Source: Candidatus Buchananbacteria bacterium
Lineage (GTDB): Bacteria > Patescibacteriota > Patescibacteriia > 2-01-FULL-39-33
Length of the DNA: 64,000 nucleotides
Reading direction: 5' to 3'
Assembly: GCA_903859075.1 (NCBI GenBank)
Contig: CAIOLF010000024.1
Coordinates: forward strand, 5,048-69,047
Shown here: positions 2,601-62,852 of the stretch, in pieces
Position numbering within the stretch: position 1 is the first letter of the stretch
Layout: the number at the start of each line of letters is the position of its first letter
The notes under the pieces: model-generated
Told to the model about the DNA's origin: nothing
What the model saw: the letters and a program-made list of their open reading frames with translations, nothing else
The model's database searches: none
Program-made: the position numbers and the translations under genes

Positions 2601-3427
2601 ATAGATGTTATATATTCAATCGCTTTTGCCATTTCATGTATTTCGCATTCAAGCTCGAAGTATCCCTGGTAATTGTATTTTTTGAGCGCTTGAACGACTT
2701 TTTTCCAATCTATCTTTCCTTTGCCAGGGGCTAAATGGGGGTCTGGCCTATTGCTTTTCTTTAGATTGTTTTCCGGTTTTCCAAAGTTATCATGAGCGTG
2801 GATATGATATATTTTAGAATTATATTTCTCTATGGCTAAAAGATAGTTTTCTTCACTGACATTGGCATGTCCGATATCCAGAGTCATGCCGAAATATTTA
2901 TTTTTTACTTTGGATATAGTTTCAGTTAGCAGATCGAATTTGCAGGCTCTATCCGGAAACCAAAAACAGGTTTGAGCTTCATTCTCAATTCCTATTTTGA
3001 TTTTTTTCTTGGCTCCGTAATCGGCTATCTTCTTGTAGGCCTCAATTTCTAATTTTTTTCTTCTTTCTAATTTAAGTCCGTATGGCTCAAGGGCGGGATG
3101 AAGAGTTACCACGGAGGATTTTAGTTGGGAAGCATAGTCGATTGATTTAAATACCTGTTTAATGCTCTCTTGTCTTATAATATTGTTAAAATCATTGATA
3201 CTGCCGCTTAGGTATTGGGCGTGAACGGTGTATCTGATCTTTTTGTCTCTTTGCAGTTTCTTCAAAAAAGCCATTTCTTGCCTGAAATCACCGTCATGTG
3301 GATAATTAAAGTCGATTTCAATACAGTCGACAATATCAGCCAAGTATTTTGTTTCCTCAATAAAATCACGACCCAGCTTTCTGGATCCCTTGGCGCATAA
3401 TTTAAGGTTGTTCTTTTCAGTTTTCAT
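2597..3427 (-). CDS. sugar phosphate isomerase/epimerase (xylose-isomerase-like TIM barrel family)
   Basis: motifs TLDIGHANV and HIHAHDNFG are typical of the AP-endonuclease-2/xylose-isomerase-like TIM barrel. Confidence 0.5.
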   Translation of the reverse strand: MKTEKNNLKLCAKGSRKLGRDFIEETKYLADIVDCIEIDFNYPHDGDFRQEMAFLKKLQRDKKIRYTVHAQYLSGSINDFNNIIRQESIKQVFKSIDYASQLKSSVVTLHPALEPYGLKLERRKKLEIEAYKKIADYGAKKKIKIGIENEAQTCFWFPDRACKFDLLTETISKVKNKYFGMTLDIGHANVSEENYLLAIEKYNSKIYHIHAHDNFGKPENNLKKSNRPDPHLAPGKGKIDWKKVVQALKKYNYQGYFELECEIHEMAKAIEYITSI

Positions 3428-3473
3428 GTTATAATTTTACATATAATAACCGTAAAAGTAAACACCATAGTAT

Positions 3474-3887
3474 ATGATAAAGAAGGGAAATGATCAACCG
3501 CCAACTTCTGTCAGTGCCATCATAACCCGCAGTGACGGCAAAGTATTTATCGCCCAAAGGAGCTGGAAGAAAAAGTTATCGCCTGGCCAATGGGAGACCG
3601 TGGGAGGTAAATTAGAGTTGAAGGAAGTACTTGAAGAAGGTTTAAGGCGTGAGATCAAAGAGGAATTAGGTGTAGATATAAAAGGCATTAGATTCTTCAA
3701 TAATTATTCCTATGCGGCCGGCAAAGTCAGCGCCACTTATATAGTTGAGATTGAGAAGAGCCCGCAGCCAAACATTCAGGATTTCGCTAATTGGGGCTGG
3801 TTCGATGAAAAGGGAATTTTACCACTGGATTTTGCGGTTGATTGCAAAGAAAGATTATTGGATTATTTTAAAAATTTGAAGAGCTAA
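3474..3887 (+). CDS. NUDIX hydrolase
   Basis: Nudix box GGKLELKEVLEEGLRREIKEELGV (G-x5-E-x7-REUxEExGU). Confidence 0.7.
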   Translation: MIKKGNDQPPTSVSAIITRSDGKVFIAQRSWKKKLSPGQWETVGGKLELKEVLEEGLRREIKEELGVDIKGIRFFNNYSYAAGKVSATYIVEIEKSPQPNIQDFANWGWFDEKGILPLDFAVDCKERLLDYFKNLKS

Positions 3888-4623: not shown

Positions 4624-5076
4624 ATGACCAATATTTACATAGATGTTTGTTGCCATACGCCCAATGCTCATCTCAAGGGCAGAGAAGTGACCGGCGATTG
4701 TTTTGCCGGCGTTTATATTATTAATGAGGACGGACAGGAACATAAATTTCAGGCGGCAATAGGAATAATGACTAACCCGGAGGCATACATTAATGCGGCT
4801 TTTATAGCTCTAGTCAAAGCTAAGAGTGTTGGAGTCAATGGCGAGGTGAAACTTAATTCTAGTCATGATGTCTTGATCGGTTGGTTATCTGGACGGTATG
4901 GCATTAAACTTCAGACGATTAAGGATATTAGTAGTCAGATCAAGGAATTAGCCAAGGAATTCGATCAAGTTTACTATCAGGTGGTAGATAAGAAAGATAA
5001 AGGTATCACTATGGCTAAGATTCTGGCCAAAGGGCAGAAAACATTAAGTGGTTCCAAGCCCTCCGAGGCTGTTTAA
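4624..5076 (+). CDS. hypothetical protein, possibly a degenerate RNase H-like fold
   Basis: 150-aa ORF directly downstream of the previous ORF; IYIDVCC...NAAFIAL...SSHDVLIGWL loosely resembles RNase H strand/helix order but lacks a clear catalytic Glu. Confidence 0.3.
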   Translation: MTNIYIDVCCHTPNAHLKGREVTGDCFAGVYIINEDGQEHKFQAAIGIMTNPEAYINAAFIALVKAKSVGVNGEVKLNSSHDVLIGWLSGRYGIKLQTIKDISSQIKELAKEFDQVYYQVVDKKDKGITMAKILAKGQKTLSGSKPSEAV

Positions 5077-5404
5077 GAAGGATTCTGCTTCCATAATGTC
5101 ATCTTAGTCATCTATGGAATTATAGGCACCTCTAAACAGCCCTCTTCAACCAGAATCGTGTAAGTATACTTTGGTCATAAAATCAATATTTTATAAATCA
5201 TTTACCACTAGATTTTGGAAATAATTCTTTAGGCAAAACTTTCCGTCCATAGAAGTCCATAAACTCCAAAATCGACTTCAATTCTTTGAGGCTAGCATCT
5301 CGAATTGCCTGTCTGTATTCGTTGAGAATGGTTCTATAATCGTTCGATGCGCGGAGCCATAGTGTATTACCCCCCCCCCATTTCCCGCCACTTTCCAATT
5401 AATT

Positions 5405-5433: not shown

Positions 5434-5707
5434 AGATTACGGCTTTAGGCCAACATGCGGCTTAGGGTTCGAGGGTTATCTCACTTTGAGACCCGCCTCA
5501 TTGCCGGGGATGACACAAGCTCCCCGGCACGAGAATTCCTCTTCCTAGGAAGAGTTTGATCTTTAGATAATTCATCCCTAGAGAAAGTTCTTTTGAGTCG
5601 CAGTTTTAGACGGAGGCAAAAGATTGTCCGATTAGCTTCCTTGAGAGTTGGTCACTGCAACATAATGGTACGGGCATGGCCCGGTGCTAAGCGAAGGAGA
5701 ATCCTGC

Positions 5708-30252: not shown

Positions 30253-31381
30253 TTATAATACCGAAATTACTTTTTTAATCTTGTATCCTTGGCAATGCTG
30301 GAGCAGCCCCAGATATGATTGTCGGCTTTGCTTCAATTTTTCAGCGCCAAGTAATCCAGATTCGGTTAGCAAGCGTTTTTCTTTCAACTTTTTTAGCATC
30401 CTTCTTTTGGTCTTGGTCCGTAAAACGCGATGATCAAAAAAATTAATCATGCCTAAAAAATCAACGCCCGAAGATAGTGTCTTAATAAAAATCTTGTCCG
30501 GATGTAAGGCTAATTTAAGTTTGTTTGACAAATAATCGCCTATCAGCGGAATTAAATTTTCCAAATATACTTTGTCGTCAAAAAATATTACAAAATCGTC
30601 GGCATAACGGATATAATGCTTTATTTTTAACTCATGTTTGATAAATTGATCAAATTTATTCAGATAAATATTGACCAGCAATTGCGAGGTAAGGTTGCCG
30701 AGCGGCAGGCCATGCGCCTTTGTATTTTCCCCCTCCCCTTTATAAGGGGAGGGTTGGGGAGGGGTAATTTCCGAATTATCATTACCCCCTCTGGCTCCCC
30801 GTTTGAAAGGGGGAGAAAAAAACACCTGCCGCAAAACTATCAATCACCTCATCCAATAAACCTAAAATTCTCTTATTGGGAATATATTCAGCTAAAATAT
30901 TTTTTAATATTCGATGGTCGATACTGGCAAAAAATTTCCTGATATCGCCTTTCAAAATCCAGCAAGTATGGGTATTATTTTTACTAACCGCATAGGCGAA
31001 TTTCTGGAATCTGACTAGGGCTTTATGCGTCCCTTTCCCTAGCCGGCAAGAATAGGAATCGCTGATGAAAATGCGATCGAAGAAAGGATACAAAATCCGA
31101 TAAATGGCATGATGGACTAATCTGTCCCTGACGCCGGCTTTATGGATGTTTCGGGGTTTGGGATCGCAGATGTTAAAGGCCTGATAGCCGCCATGGCGAT
31201 AATTGCCAGTTGCCGGATCAGAGTGCAATGCGATAAGATTATTCATGAGGCGCGATTGGAACTGCTGGACGTCTGATTTATTTCTTTTGCCTTTGATAAA
31301 TTCTCGCCAGGCGGATAATAAATTTTCTAAACTAATAATATCTTCAAACGTATGGCTCAATTGGATTTTGTTCCGGTTCAT
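30253..31381 (-). pseudogene. DGR-type reverse transcriptase, split into two frames by a ~100-bp GC-rich palindromic insertion (a homopolymer error is an alternative)
   Basis: N-part (frame A, to 30782): SLENLLSAWREFIKGKRNK, KPRNIHKAGVRDRLVHHAIY, SYSCRLGKGTHKAL, ILKGDIRKFFASIDH; C-part (frame B): HGLPLGNLTSQLLVNIYL (DGR hallmark GNLTSQ), IRYADDFVIFF, LHPDKIFIK; the frames differ by 1 nt across the insert at 30721-30821. Confidence 0.75.
30721..30821. mobile_element. GC-rich palindromic miniature element (copy 1), two CTCCCC-loop-GGGGAG hairpins in inverted orientation, inserted in the RT gene
   Basis: ccccctcccctttataaggggagggttggggaggggtaa ... taccccctctggctccccgtttgaaagggggag; compositionally alien to the AT-rich flanks; second copy at 62749-62852. 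Confidence 0.6.
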
Positions 31382-31778
31382 AATGATAAAATAAATTCTA
31401 CCCCCCCCCTCGTCCACGAATTTATTCATTTTTAATAAAGCCGTTGCCGCGTACAAATCGTGGCATGAGTGGCTGAAAAACTTTCCCAAACACTCGCGCT
31501 ATGCTCTGGGCTCGCGGGCCGACCAGATATTTCTTGATCTGCTGGAACTGCTGTTTACGGCCGGCTATCTGCCTAAAAATAAAAAACTGGAGCCGGCAAT
31601 AAAATCCATCGGCAAAATAGATCTGTTGAAATTTTATCTGCGCTTATGCTGGGAAATGAAACTTCTAAGCGACAATAAATTCCAAATTCTGGGTGTAAAA
31701 ATGGAGGAAATCGGCCGGCTGTCGTGGGCCTGGAAAAATAATTTAGAAAAAACATCCTCGCCGGAAGCGAAGATGTAA
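31352..31778 (+). CDS. Avd-like four-helix-bundle accessory protein, antisense to the RT start; continuously in frame only from 31395
   Basis: translation from 31395: ...NLFIFNKAVAAYKSWHEWLKNFPKHSRYALGSRADQIFLDLLELLFTAGYLPKNKKLEPAIKSIGKIDLLKFYLRLCWEMKLLSDNKFQILGVKMEEIGRLSWAWKNNLEKTS, which fits the TIGR02436/Avd pattern (L.vwq.a...FPK.e.y.LgsQ...); ATG 31352 is in frame only if the C9 run (31401-31409) were C8. Confidence 0.45.
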
Positions 31779-31793
31779 AGCAAAAAACCGCTG

Positions 31794-31916
31794 GCGGACA
31801 ACCGCGAAACGCCAGTTGTCGTTGAAGTCATTCTCAATCCTGTTGAGGTTCAGGTTGCGCTTCTGATCATTCCTGTTCAGATACGCGAAGTTGCGATTGC
31901 CATCGGGATGAAGCCG
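31794..31916 (-). repeat. DGR template repeat (TR)
   Basis: about 123 bp aligning to 32174-32296 at +380; at 23 mismatch positions this copy has T on the plus strand (A on the minus sense strand); encodes an AAY-rich Asn tract in the target frame. Confidence 0.85.
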
Positions 31917-32085
31917 ATTATACGCCCGATACCGTCAGGAACACCGCCGATTGAATGCTCTCTCGGCTGAATCTTGCTTGGGATCTTTAAATCCGCCAGT
32001 ATCGGGCGCCAAGCAGTTTTTTGTTTTTTTAGGTATTCCCGAGCCGTAGCCGGGGAAATATTAACCTACTTTCATTATAGATAAA

Positions 32086-32132
32086 TATGTTAAAAAGAAA
32101 AAGGCCTGCCCGACAGAAATCGTCAGACAGGC
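32086..32132 (-). terminator. hairpin plus U-tract downstream of the DGR target gene/VR
   Basis: minus-strand gcctgtctgacga-tttc-tgtcgggcaggc followed by ctttttctttttaac. Confidence 0.5.
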
Positions 32133-32155
32133 GCAAGGGGTCAAACTTCAAGGGG

Positions 32156-32857
32156 TCAAGGAGCCACCTGCTCGCGGACAACCGCGAAACGCCAGCCGTC
32201 GCGGAAGCCATCCCCAACCCTGCCGAGGTGCAGGTAGCGCCTCCGACCACCCCCGTCCAGATCCGCGAAGTCGCGAGAGCCACCGGGATGAAGCCGGATA
32301 CTTCCGAGCGCGGCAATCGGAAACTTCCGTTGCAAGTCGCGCTGCGTCGCTCCCAAAGCCAGCAACTCCTCGATACGCGCGAAGCGGTACCGATAGCCGG
32401 CTTTTTGCTCGGCCAGCCACTGGTTGACCGCTTCCAATTCGGCGATGACCGCATCGCCATTGTTGAAATAGCGGTCAAAGTGGAGCAGTTCCACTTTTAC
32501 GGCCGTCTTGCCGATTCCCTTGACGGGAAAATGCTCAGCCGTGATTTCGGGATGAACGGAGTCATACCCACCGGCAGAGATCATTTGCCCCAGGTCTTGG
32601 CTGAAGTCAACCACAACAGCCCAGGTCGACTCGAAGTATTTGGAGACGACTTCAGCGGCCTGTCGCGCTTCCGCGACAATCATTTCGGCGATCTTACGGA
32701 GTGTCTCCTCGCCTTTGGCGCTTGCCAAATAGCAGATGCACTCTCCGACATTACCGCCTACCTCCTTGATAAACTTCACGAGAGCGATAATGACCTGCTC
32801 GATCATGCCCATCAGTGACACGATCAACTCCGGTTTTTCCGATGTTCCTTTGGCCAT
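32156..32857 (-). CDS. DGR target (variable) protein, 233 aa, with the VR in the C-terminal ~40 codons
   Basis: AAAGGAGG lies 7 nt upstream of ATG (32857); C-terminus ...IRLHPGGSRDFADLDGGGRRRYLHLGRVGDGFRDGWRFAVVREQVAP is encoded by the VR; GC-rich; no obvious signal peptide. Confidence 0.7.
   Translation of the reverse strand: MAKGTSEKPELIVSLMGMIEQVIIALVKFIKEVGGNVGECICYLASAKGEETLRKIAEMIVAEARQAAEVVSKYFESTWAVVVDFSQDLGQMISAGGYDSVHPEITAEHFPVKGIGKTAVKVELLHFDRYFNNGDAVIAELEAVNQWLAEQKAGYRYRFARIEELLALGATQRDLQRKFPIAALGSIRLHPGGSRDFADLDGGGRRRYLHLGRVGDGFRDGWRFAVVREQVAP
32174..32296 (-). repeat. DGR variable repeat (VR)
   Basis: see TR; all differences lie at TR adenine positions (one exception at 31883/32263). 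Confidence 0.85.
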
Positions 32858-33178
32858 GGTAGGCCTCCTTTCGATTTTCGGCTCGCCCCTCATTCCGGAC
32901 CAATTCCAGAACCCCAGACTCGCCAAATGTACCGCCATATTTATAGCATATTATTTATATTTTGTCAATAATTTTGAAACATTTTCAAATTGACAAATAT
33001 TTTATTTAAATTTGAATAAAAAAAATAAAAGGGCAGGCACAAGGCACTGCCCCCTACAATATGCAATACTAATTAATAAACCTAATAAAAAGTCCTCAAA
33101 ATATCCCTAAAAAATAATTGCCACGACTTCTTTTTTTTGCTATAATTACCTTGTTAAACTAGCTAAAATAACCCCTAA

Positions 33179-44039: not shown

Positions 44040-45101
44040 TTATTTAGGAGGCAAATTATTGCCTAAATAAATTATTTTAGTATCAGTCGGATTAACCGCG
44101 ATGTCAGACGTCAAACGGGAATAAGGCAATTTAATTGACGACCAAGTTTGTCCGCCGTCAACTGACTTCACCAGTGAATTCTGGGTGGCATAGTAAATTT
44201 CCTTGCTATTTTTGGGATTGACGCTAACAGCATAAATCAGAGCCGCTTGAGAAACCGGCAATAAATTAACCACCTCCCAATTGACGCCGCCACTAGTGCT
44301 GCGCAGCATGCCATATTTGGAAATGAAGATCAATCCGCCCTCAGTGGCCGGATCGGCAATCAACTTTTTGTACTCATGCGTACCGGAATATGATTTCAGC
44401 CCTTCGCCCAGCCCCGCCCAATTATCGCCATTATCAGTGGACTTATAAAGCCCGTCTTTCTGAGTGCCAATATAGACTGTTGGGGAATCGTTGGGGTCGA
44501 CGACAATATCCAAAATGGAGCCGCTCTTAGTTCTTAAGACCGTTTTCCAAGACTGCCCTCCGTTGGTGCTTTTTAATAGCTCGCCGCTACTATCGCCCAT
44601 CAGAATATTATTGGGATCATTACGGTTTAGCGCCATAGCAGTCAGATAAACATCCGGCTTCTGATGATAATAAGGATTCTGCCAGGTCCGGCCGCAATCG
44701 ATTGATTTGTAGAGCTTATTGCTTAGGGCCGCGTATAGCACGCATTTGTTCTTGGGATCAACGGTTAAAAAATTCACTAATCCATTATTAAGATCGCGGA
44801 ACTGACGCCAGGAAGAACCGCCGTCATAACTATAGATAATGCCATTGCTCTTGGTGCCTAAATAAATAGCTTGGCTGTCAGACGGATCAATGGCTATCTC
44901 CGTCACCTCAACATTGGAGATGGTGATAATCTTTCCGTCAACCGCCGGTACCTTTACCGTCTGGACGAAGGTACGGCCGCTGTCGGTGGACCGCCAAATG
45001 CCGCCGGTAGAATTGCTTTGGGAAGGGCCGGTCACGGTACAGCCGCCTAGGGCCAGCAGGCCAGCCAGCAATAGGATCATGACGATTCTTTTATGGTTCA
45101 T
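44040..45101 (-). CDS. BNR/Asp-box repeat beta-propeller lipoprotein
   Basis: lipobox LLALGGC; seven S-x-D-x-G-x-T-W Asp-box repeats (STDSGRTF, SYDGGSSW, SIDCGRTW, STNGGQSW, STDNGDNW, STSGGVNW, SVDGGQTW). Confidence 0.6.
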   Translation of the reverse strand: MNHKRIVMILLLAGLLALGGCTVTGPSQSNSTGGIWRSTDSGRTFVQTVKVPAVDGKIITISNVEVTEIAIDPSDSQAIYLGTKSNGIIYSYDGGSSWRQFRDLNNGLVNFLTVDPKNKCVLYAALSNKLYKSIDCGRTWQNPYYHQKPDVYLTAMALNRNDPNNILMGDSSGELLKSTNGGQSWKTVLRTKSGSILDIVVDPNDSPTVYIGTQKDGLYKSTDNGDNWAGLGEGLKSYSGTHEYKKLIADPATEGGLIFISKYGMLRSTSGGVNWEVVNLLPVSQAALIYAVSVNPKNSKEIYYATQNSLVKSVDGGQTWSSIKLPYSRLTSDIAVNPTDTKIIYLGNNLPPK

Positions 45102-62748: not shown

Positions 62749-62852
62749 ATTCCTCCCCTTTCCAGGGGGAGGTTAGGAGGGGTTATGAAACGAACTCTTG
62801 CCTTGTGACTTTCAAAACCTCCCCTGACCCCTCCTTGGAAAGGAGGGGCATT
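62749..62852. mobile_element. GC-rich palindromic miniature element (copy 2) in the divergent pilM/lemA intergenic region
   Basis: cctcccctttccagggggaggttaggaggggtta ... acctcccctgacccctccttggaaaggaggggca; same CTCCCC-loop-GGGGAG hairpin units as 30721-30821. Confidence 0.6.

Follow-up and report, generated by a model that had tools for sequence, protein, structure and literature searches.

A palindromic element of a dispersed repeat family at the frame junction of a split diversity-generating retroelement reverse transcriptase in a Candidatus Buchananbacteria contig

Contig CAIOLF010000024.1 of Candidatus Buchananbacteria (GenBank assembly GCA_903859075.1) carries a diversity-generating retroelement (DGR) whose reverse transcriptase (RT) is encoded in two reading frames that meet inside a short, strongly palindromic segment. 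The locus raises the question of what this segment is and whether it has silenced the DGR. We analysed positions 5,048 to 69,047 of the contig; this stretch of 64,000 nucleotides is called the window, and all positions given without a locus name are those of the window. A first-pass annotation, made from the sequence alone, had read the segment as a mobile palindrome resembling a miniature inverted-repeat transposable element (MITE) or a repetitive extragenic palindromic (REP) sequence. The analysis supports and extends this reading, and a link to DUF559 genes is the part of it most worth following. The account that we consider probable is that a gene-less palindrome, similar to a MITE or to a REP doublet forming a hairpin (REPIN), sits in a permissive loop of the RT, where an insert of 3n + 1 bases splits the gene and leaves the DGR switched off at present.

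The RT gene occupies the minus strand from its start codon, the ATG at 31381 (MNRNKIQLSHTFEDII...), to 30253. The features on which the argument turns are as follows.

30782–31381, minus strand: N-terminal frame of the RT (MNRNKIQLSH...), from the ATG at 31381 to a TAA at 30784–30782; aligns with residues 9–155 of the Bordetella phage RT (bRT)
30253–30843, minus strand: C-terminal frame of the RT, holding GLPLGNLTSQ and YADD, with its stop codon at 30255–30253; aligns with bRT residues 177–284
30727–30822, unstranded: composite palindromic element, copy 1, with termini TTTT-CCCCCTCCCC ... GGGGGAG-AAAAAAA; matches the family profile (E = 6.6e-12) and the 24-base family pattern
30731–30753, unstranded: hairpin A, CCCTCCCC / TTTATAA / GGGGAGGG; encodes PSPYKGEG in the RT reading frame
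about 30756–30791, unstranded: central stem-loop, GGGGAGGGGTAAT ... ATTACCCCCTC; the stops of the N-terminal frame (TAA at 30784–30782) fall in its AT-rich loop
30795–30815, unstranded: hairpin C, CTCCCC / GTTTGAAA / GGGGGAG
30746–30764, plus strand: G-run motif GGGGAGGGTTGGGGAGGGG, G-quadruplex-capable by pattern only; overlaps hairpin A and the central stem
30816–30822, minus strand (RT sense; A7 on the plus strand): T7 run at the element edge; the loss of one base here joins the two RT frames

No single intact RT open reading frame (ORF) is present. The junction of the two frames lies in a GC-rich palindromic segment, as the first-pass annotation had stated; the offset is one base, and the segment, about 96 nt long, forms three hairpins. 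The same annotation had begun the ORF of RT motifs 4–7 at 30843; the frame is indeed a separate one, but it is open across the entire element on the RT strand (...VFFSPPFKRGARGGNDNSEITPPQPSPYKGEGENTKAHGLPLGNLTSQ...). The N-terminal frame meets three stop codons in the AT-rich spacer of the element, and the overlap of the frames falls in a T7-C-T-C5 stretch at the edge of the element. Deleting one T from the T7 run yields an RT of 375 residues, and a single base in either the T7 or the C5 run is enough to restore the frame; the shift required for a full-length product is +1 (equivalent to a one-base deletion) and not −1, the insert as sequenced being 3n + 1 bases long. The repaired RT has lost none of the residues that are invariant among 20 aligned sequences (19 homologues and the repaired RT itself), and its best solved relative is bRT (PDB entry 8ub7; E = 6.4e-40), in which the insert falls between residues 155 and 177. 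The C-terminal frame has YADD and the DGR-type motif LGNLTSQ ([ILV]GxxxSQ). Beyond the one-base shift neither half shows further decay, which suggests that the lesion is recent or reversible.

The GC content of copy 1 is 51%, compared with 35–41% for the RT halves and 46.9% for the whole window, and the earlier description of the host sequence as AT-rich does not hold for the window. As single-stranded DNA the element has a predicted energy of about −23 to −24 kcal/mol, with the same fold on either strand. The G-run motif at 30746–30764 fits the pattern for a G-quadruplex (four runs of at least three G, with loops of 1–7 nt), as had been claimed, and is the only canonical motif of this kind on the plus strand of the window, although the predicted hairpins compete for the same G-runs. 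The only other canonical match in the window is on the minus strand at 44419 (GGGCGGGGCTGGGCGAAGGG). An Rfam scan of the window at the gathering threshold found two tRNAs and no family at the element, and an E-value scan of 30600–30950 gave only sub-threshold chance matches to miRNA and snoRNA families; the two scans rule out a described RNA family.

A second copy of the element lies elsewhere in the window.

62750–62849, unstranded: element copy 2, between pilM (minus strand) and the next plus-strand gene; [CCTCCCC-TTTCCAG-GGGGAGG]-TTA-[GGAGGGGTTATGAAA..TTTCAAAACCTCCCC]-TGA-[CCCCTCC-TTGGAAA-GGAGGGG]

The first-pass annotation had placed a closely related copy here, between pilM and a divergent gene that it named lemA. 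Pfam confirms PilM, and copy 2 does belong to the family, but the two copies are only 59% identical overall and closely alike only over the left ~38 nt. Both elements (about 96 and 100 nt) are non-coding and have terminal inverted half-units of the form YT-CCTCCCC ... GGGGAGG-AR. The hairpin pattern CCTCCCCTTTNNNNGGGGAGG, searched with up to three mismatches on both strands, gave four matches at these two sites only, with 0.23 expected; none of 100 shuffled sequences reached four. Neither this pattern search nor a generic scan for GC-rich hairpins found any further copy in the window, and nhmmer with the family profile returned copies 1 and 2 only. In 771 kb of related RT loci, nhmmer found no member of the same subfamily at E ≤ 0.01.

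A 24-base signature common to both window copies was then scanned against one genome per species. It occurred in at least 120 genome stretches, with at least 131 matches, in Nitrospirota, Nitrospinota, Desulfobacterota, Cyanobacteria, several lineages of Patescibacteria, Planctomycetota, Chloroflexota, Deinococcota and Pseudomonadota; several genomes had multiple matches, some of them three or more. The full layout, [CCTCCCC-loop-GGGGAGG]-n3-[GGAGGGG..stem..variable spacer..stem..CCTCCCC]-n3-[CCCCTCC-loop-GGAGGGG], was present in at least 45 of the 133 matches listed, and this layout was not part of the search pattern. Judged by these matches, the window element is a member of a repeat family that is found in many bacterial phyla. 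The RT insert of one related locus (L080, 1534–1581) is 100% identical over 37–38 nt to sequences in two Nitrospirota genomes (L158, 6403–6440, and L196, which has three copies); identity of this kind suggests that the inserted half-unit either passed between phyla recently or is very strongly constrained. The dispersal of the family, the scattered presence and absence of inserts among RTs and the DUF559-bearing full-length relatives described below all bear out the earlier reading of a mobile MITE- or REP-like palindrome.

The position of copy 1 in the RT was assessed with the 120 best homologues, which are 55–67% identical to the query and come from Patescibacteria of the candidate phyla radiation (CPR), giving 121 aligned sequences with the query. 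As the first-pass annotation had proposed, the comparison with uninterrupted RTs delimits the insert: the linker between ...IDSF and GLPLGN is 2–8 residues in most of the homologues. At least eight extra residues are found at this linker in 36 of the 121 sequences, i.e. in 35 homologues and the query. The inserts of the 35 homologues are in frame, are of hairpin type and derive from this and other hairpin families, and the largest comprises 58 residues. Likewise, 13 of 80 metagenome RT loci have long inserts here (42–75 nt, all in frame), 11 of which fold into strong hairpins, and several unrelated sequence types are represented. RTs with and without the insert are interleaved in a neighbour-joining tree, and inserts must therefore have been gained or lost repeatedly. 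In an AlphaFold model of moderate quality (mean predicted local distance difference test score, pLDDT, of 68), residues 184–230 form an unstructured coil loop between two helices, with pLDDT below 50. Only one homologue (P0105) has an internal insert elsewhere in the RT. The alignment marks the linker as the only internal insertion hot spot of the clade, and an element there appears to be tolerated.

The most direct case is P0018, an intact RT of 376 residues that has a full composite element of the family in frame at the same site. The DNA of this insert (locus L203) is 72–74% identical to copy 2 of the window, including the TTATGAAA...TTCAAAA central stem, and the cassette has a template repeat (TR) and two variable repeats (VRs) with A-specific mismatches. 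An element at the site is therefore compatible with an intact RT, and the simple view in which its presence alone destroyed the gene falls away. The earlier claim that the element had inactivated the DGR is not borne out in that form, since P0018 and the other insert-bearing homologues tolerate theirs. What splits the RT of the window is a frame error of a single base, located at the T7/C5 edge of an insert that would otherwise be tolerated.

Other palindromes were also seen in these RT genes. The insert of P0105 is a 35-residue hairpin-type peptide (...HPREGGDP...WIPAFAGMT...) in a different loop, just before YIRYADD. Another widely distributed hairpin family, ATTCCCGC-nnnn-GCGGGAAT, reads as LDSRLRGND or VIPAxAGIQ in translation and occupies the insertion hot spot in P0001, P0004, P0019, P0036, P0050 and P0114. 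Its hairpin in L001 (651–707), which gives LDSRLRGND, recurs in intergenic DNA of CPR bacteria, Nitrospirota and Betaproteobacteria; further loci with this family are L014 (four copies), L196, L130, L129 and L152. The palindromic hot-spot insert of L060 (10541–10585) has a 96%-identical copy of 27 nt in L041 (10999–11025), about 450 nt further into the RT gene.

What could have moved the element is suggested by longer relatives in many phyla, in which a small DUF559 gene occupies the position of the miniature element's spacer. The gene product matches Pfam family PF04480 (E = 4.8e-32), a Vsr-like endonuclease of the PD-(D/E)XK type. A tblastn search of 842 kb of element-bearing loci returned nine DUF559 genes, and eight of them are within 54–190 nt of an element. 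In L171, L197, L098, L184, L100 and the Patescibacteria locus L152, the gene is enclosed by a left half-unit on one side and a right half-unit on the other, and in L171 a full-length copy (3181–3830) lies beside a miniature copy of 129 nt. An independent set of DUF559 genes was taken from complete plasmids and chromids of Picosynechococcus, two Deinococcus, Pseudanabaena, Sphingomonas and Azospirillum (L206–L211). All six genes are small and solitary, and all six are bracketed by inverted repeats with a G/C hairpin and a G-run or C-run; a 12-mer inverted match between DUF559 flanks has a chance expectation of about 0.3%. The unit of Sphingomonas parapaucimobilis (L209) is wedged between sufB and sufC. 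The literature that we searched contained no link of DUF559 with repeats. From this architecture we infer that the miniature is a gene-less derivative that would be moved in trans by a DUF559-type protein. DUF559 itself is not known as a transposase. A wider proposal, which we offer tentatively, is that it is the gene-less form of undescribed, cross-phylum mobile units consisting of DUF559 and inverted half-units (similar to the REPtrons discussed below, with another enzyme), which might move between phyla, prefer the single permissive loop of the CPR DGR RTs and sometimes switch the diversifier off.

The steps that would lead to the present locus can be set out as follows. The segment at 30727–30822 would be a non-autonomous composite element, in which a short AT-rich spacer separates two half-units in inverted orientation, each about 40 nt long and made up of a G/C hairpin with a G-run or C-run after it; its parent would be a full-length form with the DUF559 endonuclease gene at the spacer position. 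The element landed in the loop between the helix ending in ...LLDEVIDSF and the palm motif GLPLGNLTSQ, where many intact homologues translate comparable hairpin elements as 10–60 extra residues. With an insert of 3n + 1 bases as sequenced, translation from the RT start stops in the spacer and the catalytic half is out of frame; contraction of T7 (or C5) by one base would restore a complete RT. Full-length RT is most likely not made, and mutagenic retrohoming is most likely off for now.

Several points weigh against this account. The mobility of the element and the role of DUF559 are both read from architecture, there is no DUF559 gene in the window, and no target-site duplication was seen in the 21 complete elements listed or in the window copies. 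The element may have arrived 3n + 1 bases long, or may have arrived in frame and slipped afterwards, and slippage on T7 may still rescue the RT at a low level, or the RT may be active in the form of two polypeptides. The contigs in which the same split recurs (see below) may share their study and population with the window. Finally, a purely permissive loop fails to account for the density of hairpins at the RT site, small as the numbers are. The 771 kb of related loci contain 13 hairpins with polypyrimidine arms, three in the RT loop, six at the avd 3′ end/TR boundary and four elsewhere, and perfect hairpins of at least 9 bp are about four- to fivefold commoner at the RT loop than in the remainder of the RT gene. 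Selection only removes insertions and therefore cannot alone explain this density; there may be an insertion preference for the RT loop, or a benefit of the insert.

This last point leads to the rival that survives best, namely that hairpins at the RT site are selected or targeted, either as RNA or DNA structures that affect the expression of the RT or the function of the DGR, or at a preferred landing site, the split RT then being a regulated OFF state. Unrelated palindromes recur at exactly this position, they are enriched there relative to both the rest of the RT gene and the flanking DNA, and conserved structured spots exist elsewhere in the cassette as well, for example at the avd 3′ end/TR boundary. 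Against these stand the roughly 70–85% of homologues that have no insert at all, the variation of the inserts in length, sequence and orientation with no common structure, and the absence of an Rfam match; moreover, the inserts are copies of repeat families that are also found between genes and in other phyla. We regard selection or targeting as doubtful.

A second rival holds that the RT is still made, by a one-base slip on T7/U7 (transcriptional, or a +1 ribosomal shift) or as a split enzyme broken at the loop. Once shifted by +1 on U7, the P-site tRNA-Phe could pair again without a mismatch; the downstream frame, which has GTG and TTG starts, runs open through the element; the break is in a loop that is predicted to be disordered; and neither half is otherwise damaged. 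Seven T residues nevertheless make a short run for slippage to be efficient, and neither a slow A-site codon nor an obvious stimulator is present. The GC-rich element leaves two of its three frames open in any case, which makes the open frame weak evidence. Every one of the 80 related RT loci has a single frame at the site, which rules out a programmed frameshift or conserved recoding signal. Continued production of the RT is unlikely on this evidence. The first-pass annotation had left room for an insertion that was 'tolerated or bypassed': tolerance holds for the site in general, while bypass by slippage is possible but finds no support in the 80 loci.

The frameshift could also be an error of sequencing or assembly in a homopolymer, the real RT being intact with an in-frame insert. 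Such an error would need to affect only one base in the T7 or C5 run, and comparable inserts do occur in intact homologues. However, the identical 190-residue product is on record in three blocks of a contig collection, and the contig that was examined (4165 bp, seen in two samples) gives the same calls of 211 and 190 residues with the same 44-nt overlap. The window has 92 homopolymers of at least 7 nt, about 70 of which lie inside intact long open frames; miscalled homopolymers are therefore not a feature of this assembly, and systematic homopolymer error is ruled out. The frameshift, as read in these records, is probably real, and an artefact is improbable.

That the segment is a native linker of the RT lineage is very improbable and is contradicted by the homologue comparison: similar half-unit peptides do occur beside GLPLGN in some homologues (QPSPCKGEGGEN in P0047 and APSPYKGEGD in P0060), and an element is in frame in P0018, but most homologues have the short baseline linker and no insert, the insert-bearing RTs are scattered among insert-free ones, and the same sequence family is present in intergenic DNA, including that of this window.

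A gene-less palindrome in the RT loop has several counterparts among known systems. Like REP sequences, REPINs and their associated tyrosine transposases (RAYTs), which together are termed REPtrons, the family consists of short imperfect palindromes arranged as inverted doublets that fold into larger hairpins, and its copies are dispersed, mostly between genes; the full-length form resembles a REPtron in having a single protein gene with the same repeats, inverted, on either side. Many members also have the GTAG tag of REPs next to the stem (GGGGTAGA..., common in members of the Nitrospirota type), whereas the window copies have GTAA or GTTA (GGGGTAAT and GGGGTTAT). The bracketed gene differs, encoding a DUF559 PD-(D/E)XK endonuclease and not an HUH Y1 transposase. 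REPIN–RAYT systems are passed on mostly by vertical descent according to the literature, whereas near-identical units of the window family are found across phyla.

The bacterial MITEs (Correia/NEMIS, RUP, Nezha and ERIC) are likewise small, non-coding and strongly structured, with terminal inverted repeats, and the window element resembles a longer element minus its gene, as they do. MITEs are multi-copy elements; of the present family, two copies lie in the window and three or more matches in some other genomes. It departs from them in that no target-site duplication was seen, its termini are themselves hairpins and its longer relative has no recognised transposase family. Palindromic repeats inserted into protein-coding genes are also known from Rickettsia, in which Ogata and colleagues (2000) reportedly found elements of about 100–150 bp, in frame in protein genes and translated as surface loops. 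The Rickettsia palindromic elements differ from the present family in sequence, to which they are unrelated, and in host phylum; the window copy is out of frame, and its family has a candidate full-length form that encodes a protein. They are taken up in the discussion of a study documenting REPs inside ORFs, among them polymerase and repair genes and the same recB site in two Xanthomonas species (PMC3733652).

For DGRs, the locus means that one surface loop in a large clade of CPR RTs absorbs foreign palindromic DNA while the gene is apparently kept, and the hot-spot inserts amount to a natural map of insertion tolerance in an RT; the word 'insertion' is absent from the 2018 DGR survey. The window adds a concrete case in which one base at the border of such an insert has seemingly turned a diversity generator off, and two-ORF RT genes of this kind merit a check for such elements before they are labelled as pseudogenes. 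If the DUF559 link is true, a very common domain of unknown function gains a testable role with cosmopolitan hairpin repeats, and the link would help to account for the large number of spurious PSPxKGEG-type peptides that protein databases contain.

The remainder of the cassette lies beyond the RT start.

31395–31778, plus strand: bAvd accessory gene, divergent from the RT (Pfam PF22296; score of 47.9 bits, cut-off 40)
about 31794–31916, minus strand: TR, found by direct-repeat search; its sense strand is the RT strand
32156–32938, minus strand: DGR target gene, with the VR at its 3′ end (about 32174–32296)

The TR and the VR form a direct repeat of 147 nt with 77% identity, in which 24 differences are T-to-N on the plus strand, corresponding to A on the RT strand. 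As the differences are almost confined to A, the cassette has diversified its target in the past. Its genes and repeats identify it as a real DGR, and diversification is probably off at present. It shares with the DGR of Bordetella phage BPP-1 a homologous RT with LGxxxSQ and YADD, bAvd and the A-specific TR-to-VR differences; in the window, unlike BPP-1, avd is located between TR and RT but on the other strand, the RT is frameshifted and the loop matching bRT residues 156–176 has about 35 extra residues. The same layout is seen in the clade (31381–32938 in the window; L203 and L201), with target/VR, TR and RT on one strand and avd on the other. With avd placed in this way, the RNA stretch from TR to RT would be antisense to avd. 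No start codon (ATG, GTG or TTG) precedes codon 78 of the bAvd frame (none before 31626), and the expression of bAvd is therefore uncertain; at 31428 the window has ATT where the relative L014 has ATG, and a canonical avd start between the C-tract described below and the Avd core is also lacking in 25 of 57 related loci.

The gap that separates the divergent RT and bAvd genes contains a C9 tract at 31401–31409, which reads as G9 on the RT strand. Among the loci compared (L001–L080, L203/L204 and L212–L230), a tract of C7–C12 is present in the RT/avd gap in 57 of 68 clade loci, 27–39 nt upstream of the RT ATG. The idea of a phase-variable poly-C switch in avd is weakened by the constancy of the tract among assemblies of the same RT allele: the length was the same in 8/8, 8/8 and 3/3 independent assemblies, one pair differing (G15 and G11). 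The ATG 'leader' of the supposed switch is the antisense of the conserved RT N-terminus, and no link of DGRs with homopolymer switching was found in the literature searched. In Bordetella, the Sp RNA between the TR and the RT gene has RT- and Avd-binding elements that are required for priming (bioRxiv 10.1101/2023.10.23.563531), and the C-tract is at the RT-proximal end of the corresponding region. By this analogy, an element of the DGR RNA or of the 5′ untranslated region seems likelier than a phase-variation switch.

A second recurrent position of polypyrimidine/polypurine hairpins is the avd 3′ end/TR boundary, about 930–955 nt upstream of the GLPLGN codon. Hairpins are found there in L015 (4938–4961), L018, L023, L048, L056 and L071; that of the window, at about 31750–31775, is weaker. 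Elsewhere in the window, an intergenic C10 tract (5370–5379) is followed by a GC-rich stretch (5440–5560) that matches no Rfam family at the gathering threshold and includes a hairpin, CCGGGGA...TCCCCGG, at 5504–5527.

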